Shown here in pieces: positions 1,520 through 38,391 of a stretch of DNA of 38,391 nt. Position 1 is the first letter of the stretch. Each line of letters starts with the position of its first letter. The stretch spans positions 1 through 38,391 of the forward strand of contig CAZIVB010000001.1 in the NCBI GenBank assembly GCA_964542565.1, given 5' to 3'. The translations under genes were made by a program, and so were the position numbers. Under the pieces are notes generated by a model. It was given only the letters and a program-made list of their open reading frames with translations. It was not told the origin of the DNA and did no database searches. The stretch is from an uncultured Hyphomicrobiales bacterium (GTDB lineage Bacteria; Pseudomonadota; Alphaproteobacteria; Rhizobiales; BM303).

Positions 1520-3051
<1,532 letters not shown>

Positions 3052-3062
3052 GGATAAAAACC

Positions 3063-3490: not shown

Positions 3491-4420
3491 ATGCTCTGGA
3501 ATATAAACTCGGATATCGACTGGCCGGCCTTTGACAGCGCCAGAGTGGACCGCAATATTCTGCAAGTCATCAAATCCGCCGCACTGGTCGAGGCCAACGC
3601 TTCTGATTATGTCGCTTATCTTTGCGGTGTCTGGCAAGACAATCCGGATTTGCAGCAAACGGTGAAACAATGGGGCCGGGAAGAAAGCCGCCACGGCGAG
3701 GCGCTCGCCAGATGGGCCTCTCTCGCCGATCCTGGTTTTGATTTTCCAAGCGCCCTTGAACGCTTCCGGAAAATGCAGGCGATCGACACCGCCGCGACCG
3801 CCTCAATCCGCGGCTCGCCAACCGGTGAGCTTGTGGCCCGCTGCGTGGTGGAAACAGGAACCTCGTCGCTATACGCCGCCATTCGCGATGCCACCGACGA
3901 GCCGGTTCTCAAACAACTGACAACCCGCATCGCCGCCGATGAATTTGCCCATTACGCCCTGTTCAGCGCCCTGATAAAAAAACAGCATCAACAACTGCCG
4001 CGCGTATCGCGCCTGAAAATTGCCCTCGCGCGCCTGTTCGAGGCCTCCGATGATGAACTGGCCTCGGCCTATTATTGCGCCGCCCGCCCGCCATCGGGCG
4101 AACTAGAGCACTTCCGGAAAAGTGGGAACCGGTTTTCCGATAAGAAGTGCGGCAACAACAAAGAATTAGAGCCCGGTTTTGATCTAATCAAAACCGGAAA
4201 TGCTCTTGTCTATGAGCGCAAGCTTTTCAGCAATGCCTATCAACTGGGCGTATTGCGCATCTATCAGCGCCGGCATATCAACCGTCTGGTGGCGATGATT
4301 GCCAGGGCCGGCGGCCTGAAACCGCATGGGCTGACCGTACGGTTTTTTCAGCCCCTGGTCTGGTTTGCCCTAAACGTTCAGAAAAAAAGACTGATCAGGA
4401 TTTTGCCGTCTCATATTTGA
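3491..4420 (+). CDS. Ferritin-like di-iron carboxylate protein (acyl-ACP desaturase / AurF-like fold), carrying an in-frame repeat-element insertion
   Basis: 309 aa with two ExxH motifs (REESRHGEAL and AADEFAHYAL) spaced as in di-iron four-helix-bundle proteins. It starts 29 nt after atpC. Codons about 205-239 are encoded by the repeat element. Confidence 0.65.
   Translation: MLWNINSDIDWPAFDSARVDRNILQVIKSAALVEANASDYVAYLCGVWQDNPDLQQTVKQWGREESRHGEALARWASLADPGFDFPSALERFRKMQAIDTAATASIRGSPTGELVARCVVETGTSSLYAAIRDATDEPVLKQLTTRIAADEFAHYALFSALIKKQHQQLPRVSRLKIALARLFEASDDELASAYYCAARPPSGELEHFRKSGNRFSDKKCGNNKELEPGFDLIKTGNALVYERKLFSNAYQLGVLRIYQRRHINRLVAMIARAGGLKPHGLTVRFFQPLVWFALNVQKKRLIRILPSHI
4103..4206. 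repeat. Two-hairpin palindromic repeat element, copy 2, inverted relative to copy 1 and inside a CDS
   Basis: Hairpin B is gcacttc-cggaaaa[gtgggaaccgg]ttttccg-ataa-gaagtgc (4108-4150). The linker is ggcaacaacaaagaatt. Hairpin A is agagc-ccggttttgat[cta]atcaaaaccgg-aaat-gctct (4168-4206). It aligns to the reverse complement of 2947-3051. Confidence 0.7.
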
Positions 4421-5142: not shown

Positions 5143-6459
5143 TTAATGATGTTGTTTTCTGAACGCCGCGCTGACCGGAACCAGCACAATGCCCCTGTCC
5201 GCCAGGGTTTTCGCCCAGGCGGCAACAAACTTGATCGTCAGCGGCATGCCGCTGCCAACACCGATGGCAAGCCCTTGTTCCGCCGCAAGACGTTCCAGTT
5301 TTTCCAGCCCGGCCTTGATACTTTTCGGTGTCTGGCCATAGTCAAGCCGCGCAGCGGCGATTTTCACCTTCAGGCCGCTGGCCGGGCTCAGTTTCAGGGT
5401 CTGGCTGCGCGGCGAGGCGCCATCATCAAGGTAAACCAGCCCGCGCGCGCCGAGCCATTTCATGATCGGCTGCAATGATTTTTCCGTCGATGTAAACCGC
5501 GCCCCCATATAATTGGTAACCCCGAAATAGCCTGAAAACCGCGACATCAGCCATTTCAGGCGCTTGACGTTTTCGGAAGGCTCGATCGTGCTCAGCAATG
5601 TGCGCGGGCCCGGGTCGTTATCGGGATAGTCAAACGGCTCCATGGGAATTTGCAGCATAACCTCATGCCCGTTCCGGCGCGCGCTATCGACCAGATTCTG
5701 CAATCCCTGACCATAAGGCGCAAAGGCGAGGGTAATCTCTTCCGGCAGCTTGTTGATCGCCTCACGGGTGCCGCTCTGGCTGATCCCCAGCCCGCCGATC
5801 ATAATGGCGATGCGCGCCGGTTGCGGCGCTCCGACCGCCGTTTTACGCCCTGCCGGCCTGGCATAGACATCAAAGGGTTTGCGGCCGTCCTTGGCGATGC
5901 GGGGAATGGCCCCGAACGGTGTTTTTTCCTGCAACGCCTTGAGCGGCGCCCGGACAAGAGCCCGGCGCACCCGCTGCGCCGGACCGCCCGCCGATTTGGA
6001 CGGATCAATGATCCTGACCTTTTTCATACCCGGCGGCGGCTCTGGCGCGCGTGGAATACCCGTCTTAACCGGTCCAGACAGATCGGAGCCGGGCCGGGCT
6101 GGCGGATTGCGAACCAGCGGATTGCGAACCAGCGGGTTGTTAACCGGCGGGTTGTTAACCAGCGGGTTGTTAACCGGTGGGTTGCGAACCGGCGGGTTCT
6201 CTGAATCGATGGATTTGCGGATACCGATCCCATCGCCCCCGCCCGGACGCTCACTGCCAGGCGTATTCAGGCCTGGCAGGTCAAGAACCAGAACCGGCTC
6301 ACCCTTTTGCGCTGATCCGTGCGGCCACAGATAAACGCCGAGCCCGGCAAGCCCGCCCAGAACAAGCAGGGCCGTTAAAAGCCTGACCCCGGCCCTTTTC
6401 CTTTTCACGCCCGCATCGGCAGGACCGGCATCGGCGACCAGGCCTGCATCACTGCTCAT
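5143..6459 (-). CDS. Divergent polysaccharide deacetylase family protein (YibQ-like), N-terminally membrane-anchored
   Basis: 438 aa. It has a TM segment LLTALLVLGGLAGLGVYLW, a Pro/Asn-rich repeat linker, and a C-terminal domain IAIMIGGLGIS...GHEVMLQIPMEPFDYPDNDPGP typical of the YibQ/DUF610 family. AAGGAG lies upstream of the ATG. Confidence 0.8.
   Translation of the reverse strand: MSSDAGLVADAGPADAGVKRKRAGVRLLTALLVLGGLAGLGVYLWPHGSAQKGEPVLVLDLPGLNTPGSERPGGGDGIGIRKSIDSENPPVRNPPVNNPLVNNPPVNNPLVRNPLVRNPPARPGSDLSGPVKTGIPRAPEPPPGMKKVRIIDPSKSAGGPAQRVRRALVRAPLKALQEKTPFGAIPRIAKDGRKPFDVYARPAGRKTAVGAPQPARIAIMIGGLGISQSGTREAINKLPEEITLAFAPYGQGLQNLVDSARRNGHEVMLQIPMEPFDYPDNDPGPRTLLSTIEPSENVKRLKWLMSRFSGYFGVTNYMGARFTSTEKSLQPIMKWLGARGLVYLDDGASPRSQTLKLSPASGLKVKIAAARLDYGQTPKSIKAGLEKLERLAAEQGLAIGVGSGMPLTIKFVAAWAKTLADRGIVLVPVSAAFRKQHH
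6102..6199. repeat. 15-bp in-frame tandem repeat, about 6.5 copies (pentapeptide NP[PL]V[RN] units)
   Basis: Consecutive units are gcggattgcgaacca x2, gcgggttgttaaccg, gcgggttgttaacca, gcgggttgttaaccg and gtgggttgcgaaccg, then a partial unit. They encode NPPVRNPPVNNPLVNNPPVNNPLVRNPLVRNPP on the minus strand. Confidence 0.9.
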
Positions 6460-9767: not shown

Positions 9768-10208
9768 TCAGATCGCGCGTTGTTCTTGCGGGCTGTCCAT
9801 CGACCAGAGTTTTTCAAGATTATAAAACGAACGCACTTCCGGCCGGAAGATATGGATGATCACATCGCCGCAATCAACCAGAACCCAGTCACAATAGGGC
9901 AGGCCCTCGATACGCGGCCGCCCGAAGCCGCCCTTGCGGACGCCTTTGCGCAACTTGTCGGCAATGGCGCCGACATGGGTGCGCGAGTTGCCCGAGGCAA
10001 CAATCATCTGATCGGCAATCGTGCTTTTTCCCAGCAGGTCGATGGTGATGACATCTTCAGCCTTGGAGTTTTCGAGTGTATCTGAGATGAGATCTTTAAG
10101 TCTGGCGACCTCAATGTGAGAAGAGGTGCGCGCACGCGGCCCGTCAGGGGCGGGGTGCGAAATCGTGTCGATATTCAGGGTCAAATTCCTTATATTGCTC
10201 TGACGCAA
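9768..10208 (-). CDS. rsfS: Ribosome silencing factor
   Basis: KAEDVITIDLLGKSTIADQMIVASGNSRTHVGAIADKL...WVLVDCGDVIIHIFRPEVRSFYNLEKLW is typical RsfS. The start is uncertain: the track uses a TTG at 10208, there is no upstream ATG, and this gives an N-terminal extension of about 35 aa. Confidence 0.8.
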   Translation of the reverse strand: MRQSNIRNLTLNIDTISHPAPDGPRARTSSHIEVARLKDLISDTLENSKAEDVITIDLLGKSTIADQMIVASGNSRTHVGAIADKLRKGVRKGGFGRPRIEGLPYCDWVLVDCGDVIIHIFRPEVRSFYNLEKLWSMDSPQEQRAI

Positions 10209-37938: not shown

Positions 37939-38391
37939 TTAAAAAGGTCTCACAATGACCAAAATCACAATCGCAATCATGAGCAATGTCGGAATTTCGT
38001 TTATATAACGGAAAAACTTTTCCGAATGTCGATTCATATTTTCTTGAAATAATGAAACTTGTCTTCCAAGATAAAAATGGAATATTGTAATCAAAACAAC
38101 CAGAACAATCTTGATATGAAACCAGATATCTGTTTGAAAATCTATAATACCCGGAGTAAATAAGCATAATGATCCAAAAAACCACATTAAATATAATGCT
38201 GGTTGCATAATATAATTATATAATTTATATTCCATTATTTTAAATTTATCACTGGATAATTCAGTATTATCTTTTTGACTGTGATAAACAAATAATCTTG
38301 GAAGATAAAAAATACCAGACATCCATGCAATCATGCTTATGACATGCAATGCCTTTGTCCAGGGATATAATTCACTGAGAAAATCAAACAT
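37939..38391 (-). CDS. hemJ: Protoporphyrinogen IX oxidase HemJ (UPF0093/CopD-like membrane protein)
   Basis: 150 aa with KALHVISMIAWMSGIFYLPRLFVYH, the HemJ signature. The ATG occupies the last three bases of the window, so the ORF appears complete. The gene is very AT-rich. Confidence 0.85.
   Translation of the reverse strand: MFDFLSELYPWTKALHVISMIAWMSGIFYLPRLFVYHSQKDNTELSSDKFKIMEYKLYNYIMQPALYLMWFFGSLCLFTPGIIDFQTDIWFHIKIVLVVLITIFHFYLGRQVSLFQENMNRHSEKFFRYINEIPTLLMIAIVILVIVRPF

Follow-up and report, generated by a model that had tools for sequence, protein, structure and literature searches.

Rickettsia palindromic elements (RPEs) are palindromic repeats that lie in frame in unrelated housekeeping genes, where they encode a conserved peptide at positions compatible with the protein fold (PMC10969869). 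In-frame fusions have also been described for miniature inverted-repeat transposable elements, or MITEs, in particular ERIC/YPAL in enterobacteria, QMITE1 in Coxiella and the Anabaena MITEs, which are non-autonomous and have terminal inverted repeats and open frames (PMC10969869). A 2024 review calls in-frame repeat fusions 'not unusual' and mentions no example from Rhizobiales or Brucella (PMC10969869). Here we analyze a stretch of 38,391 nt from an uncultured Hyphomicrobiales bacterium (contig CAZIVB010000001.1), referred to as the window, in which a palindromic repeat of about 100 bp sits inside a gene for a ferritin-like di-iron protein. A preliminary description of the window, made from its letters, had called this segment RPE-like.

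Repeats of about this size are also known from Brucella and from rhizobia. Bru-RS1 and Bru-RS2 denote palindromic repeats of 103-106 bp with about 222 matches in B. melitensis; they lie between genes and are hot spots for the insertion sequence IS711 via YTAR. Sinorhizobium/Rhizobium carry RIME (Rhizobium-specific intergenic mosaic elements), which Osteras and colleagues reportedly described in 1995; it is said to span about 108 bp and to contain two large palindromes. The large superfamilies of repetitive extragenic palindromic (REP) sequences consist of smaller repeats, described in one account as palindromes of 20-40 bp tagged with GTAG or CGTC at one end (PMC3733652).

Results

A repeat copy inserted in frame in a di-iron protein gene

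The element and its host gene comprise the following features.

3491-4420, plus strand: host gene, 309 aa, ferritin-like di-iron carboxylate protein with an acyl-ACP-desaturase/R2lox-like fold
4103-4204 (equally 4105-4206), minus strand: inserted two-hairpin repeat copy (empty site in locus L001, protein alignments, nhmmer profile E 1.4e-27)
4108-4150: hairpin 2 of the inserted copy, stems GCACTTC/GAAGTGC and CGGAAAA/TTTTCCG, loop GTGGGAACCGG (fold, compensatory pairs, RF02599 local match of 41 bits)
4168-4206: hairpin 1 of the same copy, with a perfect 11-bp stem CCGGTTTTGAT/ATCAAAACCGG clamped by AGAGC/GCTCT (fold, sequence)

An empty site in the closest relative (locus L001) defines the insertion. 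Where L001 reads GGGCGAA|CTTGTC, the window reads GGGCGAA-CTAGAGC...AAATGCT-CTTGTC, and the two loci are 93% identical in nucleotide sequence across atpD, atpC and the di-iron gene. The target was a leucine codon, and a more distant relative reads CCA CTG GTC at this site. Compared with the empty site, the net gain at 4103-4204 is exactly 102 nt, or 34 codons. The inserted copy runs from CTAGAGC at 4103 to GCTCT ending at 4206, and its placement is ambiguous by 2 nt (4103-4204 or 4105-4206) because CT lies on both sides.

In its canonical orientation, hairpin 1 followed by hairpin 2, the copy lies on the minus strand, and translated antisense in the plus-strand host gene it gives the 34-residue peptide LEHFRKSGNRFSDKKCGNNKELEPGFDLIKTGNA. 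The gene stayed open because the net gain is a multiple of three (3 × 34) and because the orientation and phase that were hit read through the element without a stop codon; two of its six frames are stop-free. The preliminary description had recognized the AGAGC/GCTCT anchors, the 11-bp hairpin and the compound hairpin, all of which are present, and a reading of 3491-4420 confirms its open frame through the element. It had also estimated the insert at about 35 residues, worried that a 104-nt segment would break the frame unless the true insertion were 105 or 108 nt, and held that the boundaries could not be fixed. The insertion itself stands, as does its being a multiple of three, but the length is 102 nt and 34 residues (205-238), and the empty site fixes the boundaries to within 2 nt. 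Positions 4103-4204 are a recent insertion of a non-autonomous two-hairpin repeat of about 100 bp that is MITE-like in behavior.

The insert in the context of the host protein

Comparison with homologues gives the same result at the protein level. Our search found 3270 homologues; the 119 listed besides the window protein are 268-297 aa long, the 297-aa one being extended at its N-terminus, and no other among those listed is long enough to hold such an insert. Orthologues of about 272-275 aa lie directly downstream of atpC in relatives. The closest relative protein (P0002, 275 aa, GCA_024275895.1) is encoded on a contig syntenic with the window, with atpH-A-G-D-C, the host gene and a convergent NUDIX gene. 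Residues 205-238 were found in the window protein alone in alignments of 16 and 67 sequences (66 other homologues), and the 70 residues that follow align in frame, including the invariant columns Y241, Y258, H262 and W291. The aligned homologues thus lack the segment that had been placed at about 205-239, as proposed, and the alternative that the C-terminal 70 residues are not in the ancestral frame can be dismissed.

Searches against Pfam gave sub-threshold matches only, to FA_desaturase_2, Rubrerythrin and COQ7. An AlphaFold model computed from the 67-sequence alignment is an all-helical bundle (mean predicted local distance difference test score, pLDDT, 89.6; predicted TM-score 0.87), and its nearest neighbors in Foldseek are plant acyl-ACP desaturases and R2-like ligand-binding oxidases (TM about 0.5-0.57). 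The conserved Glu/His motifs, E34, EExxH at 64-68 (E64/E65-H68), E121 and DExxH at 150-154 (D150/E151-H154), are retained and all lie upstream of the insert, although columns invariant across the 67 aligned homologues are kept in the window protein by construction. The structural neighbors make the earlier label of 'di-iron protein' a reasonable one.

The insert comes after all four helices that bear these motifs. In the model it falls between helices 189-198 and 243-255, where residues 212-235 are given a pLDDT below 50 and are predicted to lack secondary structure. The model thereby places it in an inter-helix loop, which bears out the suggestion that it might be a loop.

Two further observations concern the host gene. 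Its last 26 nt at the 3' end (4395-4420) also belong to the convergent NUDIX hydrolase gene, and the overlap is kept in L001 (9886-9911) and in the more distant L126 (4800-4825). Within the gene, codons 45-70 (3623-3700) have a dS of 0.93 to the closest relative compared to 0.16 in the rest of the gene, with 12 non-synonymous differences; this patch looks like a small recombination or gene-conversion tract.

Two copies in the window

The second copy of the repeat lies between atpD and atpC, with the following features.

2947-3051, plus strand: intergenic copy with CTAGAGC...GCTCTAG ends, between atpD and atpC (sequence, fold, nhmmer)
2948-2987: hairpin 1 of the intergenic copy
3003-3046: hairpin 2 of the intergenic copy
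2948-2950, plus strand: stop codon of atpD (TAG), which lies within this copy's terminal CTAGAGC

The preliminary description had presented 4103-4206 as a copy of 2947-3051. The similarity survives formal alignment (79% identity over 72 nt, E 6e-12, pairwise blastn), but the copies are in opposite orientation, with the intergenic copy aligning to the minus strand of the coding copy. An nhmmer profile built from 26 copies of other genomes alone, scanned over the 38-kb window at E up to 10, matches exactly these two sites, at 4099-4211 on the minus strand (E 1.4e-27) and at 2943-3054 on the plus strand (E 1e-17). Neither this independent profile nor mismatch-tolerant motif searches found further copies in the window. 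As RNA, each strand of either copy forms two hairpins. Free energies range from -34 to -42 kcal/mol and z from -5.0 to -6.4, values that were not reached by any of 200 dinucleotide shuffles.

The intergenic copy is common to the window and L001 and is absent from the more distant L126 and L127. In the more distant relatives atpD ends GCG GCT TGA, and atpC starts 12 nt later. The window therefore holds two independent presence/absence events, one for the coding copy (against L001) and one for the intergenic copy (against L126 and L127).

Could the 102-nt segment be an assembly artefact, with the repeat threaded wrongly into the gene? Repeats are a classic source of misassembly, the contig apparently comes from a metagenome-style assembly, and the protein is a singleton cluster on one contig. 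However, both flanks continue the gene in frame and in the synteny of relatives, and the inserted copy differs in sequence and orientation from the sole other copy on the contig. Similar in-frame copies also occur in independent assemblies from other organisms, and two probable ant-gut samples have identical contigs (see below). We consider an artefact very improbable.

A mosaic repeat family of Hyphomicrobiales

We scanned species-representative genomes, one genome per species with taxa taken from record titles, for the core pattern of hairpin 2. At least 119 stretches matched, nearly all of them in Hyphomicrobiales or in unclassified alphaproteobacterial metagenome-assembled genomes. The genera include Ochrobactrum/Brucella, Mesorhizobium, Rhizobium, Bradyrhizobium, Nitrobacter, Hyphomicrobium and Methyloceanibacter, and Xanthobacteraceae are also represented. 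Of 89 plasmid records with full-length relatives of 103-110 nt, 47 belong to Sinorhizobium and 29 to Rhizobium, and the rest to Nitratireductor, Agrobacterium, Bartonella and others; one of these is a 103-nt relative on S. meliloti 1021 pSymA at 143373-143475. From end to end, the element can be aligned with copies from Brucella (Ochrobactrum) pituitosa, S. meliloti 1021 pSymA, Rhizobium and Nitratireductor, and nhmmer found 173 matches in 1.1 Mb of collected loci. By their titles, the genome and plasmid matches listed are nearly all Hyphomicrobiales, other alphaproteobacteria or unclassified metagenome-assembled genomes, with no Rickettsia record among them.

The family, scattered over genomes and megaplasmids of Hyphomicrobiales, is a mosaic. 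Hairpin 2, its most conserved module, occurs alone as a unit of about 50-65 nt in many genomes, while others carry a composite of about 105 nt laid out as CTAGAGC, hairpin 1, GCTCTAR, a T-rich spacer (TCTTTGTTTTG), hairpin 2 and CTCTAG. The terminal inverted repeats are 7 bp long (CTAGAGC...GCTCTAG). Stem sequences vary between lineages yet remain complementary; in an alignment of 28 copies, one pair of hairpin 2 is UA in 11, AU in 8 and GC in 8, and another is GC in 16 and CG in 12. All 28 composite copies fold better than their shuffles (mean z -5.3). With the MAFFT alignment as input, RNAalifold returned no more than the inner stem of hairpin 2, as the subfamilies do not have hairpin 1 in the same register, and per-copy folding was used instead.

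The hairpin-2 module by itself is repeated head to tail in some genomes, such as that of Mesorhizobium robiniae, in arrays of 3-4 units about 57 nt apart (L021 4788-5011; L080 4681-4801 and 6994-7100; L084 3015-3135).

At gathering thresholds, Rfam has no match anywhere in the window. In E-value mode, RF02599 (BASRCI408) matches hairpin 2 only, below threshold (41 bits, E 7e-9), and RF02600 (BASRCI27) matches the element in full at 26 bits, where the gathering score is 59.8. These models of Brucella small RNAs (sRNAs) match the window at 4106-4151 and 3004-3045. From sequence similarity, RF02599 and RF02600 seem to include copies of this dispersed palindromic repeat.

The same peptide in other proteins

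An exhaustive phmmer search with the 34-residue insert returned eight proteins, of which four are real proteins with the peptide internal, and a profile search of the recovered loci (11 copies in 60 kb) added a ferrochelatase. The in-frame copies are:

TsaB-like protein: peptide at residues 158-190
Smr-domain protein: peptide at residues 94-125
DciA protein: peptide at residues 87-118, splitting the domain
O6-methylguanine methyltransferase (Ogt): two copies between domains
Ferrochelatase (HemH): in-frame copy AIEHFPKSGNRFLDKKCGKNKELEQIGDSIKSHSAIE, from the profile search of recovered loci

In HemH, alignment to human ferrochelatase resumes directly after the insert. All copies within coding sequences are antisense to the canonical orientation and share one frame (LEHFxKSGNRF...). 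The TsaB, Smr and DciA contigs come from one JGI sample (record prefix CVPL005L), with an identical contig in CVPL010W; these names agree with PL005 and PL010, two colonies of Cephalotes varians whose gut metagenomes hold many Rhizobiales (bioRxiv 10.1101/2021.09.08.459499). Four of the five other host genes are probably from turtle-ant gut Rhizobiales.

When species-representative genomes were sampled by DNA pattern, no copy lay within a credible gene among about 125 core-pattern matches (about 55 near-full-length). The 23 stop-to-stop open reading frame (ORF) candidates over these copies looked, apart from the window copy, like spurious Arg/Gly/Ala-rich frames in GC-rich sequence or ORFs of neighboring genes, and the two longest (L105, L058) were rejected on inspection. 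Among plasmid copies lying under annotated genes, those at YegP and treY overlap the stop codon only, that at YcaO falls in a probably over-extended N-terminus, and none is a convincing internal insertion.

A word-index protein search with the insert peptide gave no match. A profile of the seven insert peptides matched 152 proteins, and all 120 listed are 27-81 aa long (P0125, P0130-P0248), many of them annotated 'hypothetical protein', for example in Mesorhizobium ventifaucium; this search listed none of the known long proteins and so is no census of in-frame cases. These short proteins appear to be translated repeat copies and would then be gene-calling artefacts.

A degraded repeat copy at 9963-10068 of locus L124 overlaps the annotated start of a DciA gene, whose first 21 residues (MRQKQTIETQMSDSIKSHSAL) are element-derived. 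Either this start is mis-called, or the element supplies the N-terminus.

Target site and mobilization

Across 28 copies the flanks are mostly Y-TA|GAGC...GCTC|TA-R. CTAG, which fits YTAR, terminates the intergenic copy on both sides and the coding copy on one side. In a survey of the ends of near-full-length copies at 132 loci, 22 of 102 ends have an open frame of at least 200 codons that stops at the terminal TAR, compared to 8 of 204 in control frames. The TAG or TAA of the element is the neighbor's stop codon at atpD in the window and at plasmid YegP and treY (L128 1599-1602, L130 3101-3104).

IS711 is reported to insert at YTAR sites with duplication of TA, a rule that also holds for IS5-family/IS427-group elements. 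Such a rule would account for both the flanks and the frequent coincidence of element ends with stop codons. We suggest, with considerable doubt, that the repeat may be mobilized in trans by a transposase of this type (for example, IS711) inserting at YTAR with TA duplication. A transposase acting in trans would move the repeat into a YTAR site; duplication of TA would add 2 nt to a 100-nt core and give the observed 102; and a TAG or TAA stop hit by the insertion would be restored. The hairpins probably reflect a transposition substrate, or a structural role in RNA or DNA, rather than a role in protein. At the intergenic site, TA within CTAG suits the model only on the assumption that the stop was originally TAG. 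At the coding site the flanks are CT on both sides or, under the TA model, TA on the left versus TT on the right, and the model would need this as one added assumption.

The two strong hairpins near the element ends would also suit a Y1 HUH tyrosine transposase (IS200/IS605 or RAYT) that recognizes them on single-stranded DNA, which would make the repeat a PATE/REP-like element. An IS605-type pair (Y1_Tnp and TnpB/OrfB genes) does lie at 18934-20755 of L121, a probable ant-gut contig with three repeat copies, but this proximity is a single observation. Moreover, the element has true terminal inverted repeats (CTAGAGC/GCTCTAG), which IS200/IS605 ends lack, and it is without the initial GTAG or CGTC that defines the large REP superfamilies (PMC3733652). 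We judge the Y1 route improbable, and weaker than the route through a YTAR/TA transposase.

Other features of the window

In the minus-strand gene at 5143-6459, positions 6086-6205 hold 6-8 tandem 15-nt units encoding an (N/R)NP(P/L)V pentapeptide tract NPPVRNPPVNNPLVNNPPVNNPLVRNPLVRNPP; a relative's gene at the syntenic position has a Polysacc_deac_2 domain. At the end of the contig, 38186-38245 is very AT-rich and partly palindromic, and the remainder is 55% G+C.

Discussion

Taken together, these observations support, with high probability, a model in which a mobile Hyphomicrobiales two-hairpin repeat inserted in frame into the di-iron gene. Several points nonetheless weigh against this model. 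The empty-site comparison at the DNA level comes from one pair only, the window and L001, and the count of two copies covers the 38-kb window only. The shared frame of copies in coding sequences is partly ascertainment, because five of the seven were recovered by a peptide query limited to that frame; the HemH and window copies are independent of it. The target duplication is unclean, in that CT, T or TA/TT each imply either that nothing was duplicated or that one mutation followed. An autonomous element sharing these ends did not turn up, and no search was aimed at transposase genes with such ends. The open frame is itself weak evidence of selection: with the gain fixed at 102 nt and two of six frames open, about one in three random insertions would stay open by chance. 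The 309-aa protein, finally, is predicted from the gene sequence.

The last two points also fit the possibility that the insertion inactivated the gene and that we are looking at a young, decaying pseudogene whose frame is open by chance. The ratio of nonsynonymous to synonymous substitution rates (dN/dS) against the closest relative is 0.24 for the gene, higher than the 0.026 of the adjacent atpD, and the lack of copies in credible genes among the DNA-pattern matches suggests that such insertions are normally purged. However, the gene has no frameshift and no stop, it keeps all family-invariant residues, and the insertion lies in an inter-helix loop outside the metal-ligand helices. Downstream of the insert dN/dS matches the upstream value (0.23 and 0.25), although both average the two lineages since their split and carry little information on the period after insertion. 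In addition, the same insert occurs in the essential genes tsaB, hemH and dciA of other lineages, so the peptide is tolerable. Inactivation is therefore unlikely in our view, if far from negligible, and we hold, with moderate confidence, that the insert is tolerated as a disordered loop in a protein that is probably still made and functional.

A broader proposal is that the Hyphomicrobiales two-hairpin repeat is a second, independent RPE-like system. This would be a MITE targeting TA/YTAR that as a rule persists nowhere but in spacers and at stop codons and that, in some lineages, possibly host-associated ones (turtle-ant gut Rhizobiales), repeatedly deposits a conserved module of 34-35 residues (LEHFxKSGNRFxDKKCGxNKELE...) in loops of housekeeping proteins. 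We offer this tentatively, as a prospect that is nearly balanced. The data hint that essential genes hold many such inserts in some lineages, ant-gut Rhizobiales possibly among them. If the proposal is true, the repeat provides a natural, datable experiment in protein insertion tolerance. The window itself is a clean case of a 34-residue gain from selfish DNA whose filled and empty alleles occur in near relatives. RPE-like behavior is also extended to very common palindromic repeats of the Rhizobiales type, including essential genes of probable ant-gut symbionts. For annotation, the repeat touches short 'hypothetical proteins', the Rfam models of Brucella 'sRNAs' and the stop codons of neighboring genes.

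How does the element compare with the systems already described? With RPEs it shares a palindromic sequence in the range of about 100-150 bp with stable hairpins (z -5.0 to -6.4), an in-frame gene insertion (here of 102 nt) in a segment that homologues lack, and the recurrence of one peptide frame, in this case in TsaB, HemH, Smr, DciA and Ogt. It differs in that it comes from Hyphomicrobiales whereas RPEs come from Rickettsiales, and in that its family is overwhelmingly intergenic in the sampled species-representative genomes, with one in-frame case in the window. Membership in the RPE sequence families is very unlikely. The earlier comparison with RPEs thus holds for behavior, in the translated in-frame insert and its recurrence, but not for kinship, as the relatives of the element are of Bru-RS/RIME type and from Hyphomicrobiales. 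The element is RPE-like in behavior and not an RPE by descent, and in-frame insertion of small repeats is already documented, so no new principle is involved.

The likeness to Bru-RS lies in size (window copies of 102 and 105 nt), palindromic structure, a multi-copy family, CTAG (YTAR) at the element ends and an intergenic location for the copy at 2947-3051, to which the coding copy is the exception. The two-palindrome architecture matches the description of RIME, and a 103-nt relative lies on pSymA. We call the element 'Bru-RS/RIME-type' as a likeness in size and architecture, compared by description only; it names a type rather than a membership. Bru-RS and RIME are described as intergenic, whereas the window has an in-frame coding copy. 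Our literature search found no report of coding copies of Bru-RS/RIME-type repeats, and a full-text search for the element sequence or its peptide gave no relevant paper.

Unlike REP sequences and their RAYT transposases, the element is about 100 bp long and ends in CTAGAGC/GCTCTAG rather than carrying a GTAG or CGTC tag. It resembles MITEs in its terminal inverted repeats (CTAGAGC...GCTCTAG) and in the presence/absence polymorphism between relatives seen for both window copies. Like ERIC, QMITE1 and the Anabaena MITEs, it is a non-autonomous repeat that lengthens or interrupts a host ORF in frame, although those belong to other sequence families and other phyla. Compared to such intragenic MITEs, the window offers a clean filled/empty pair that dates the event and sets its boundaries to within 2 nt.

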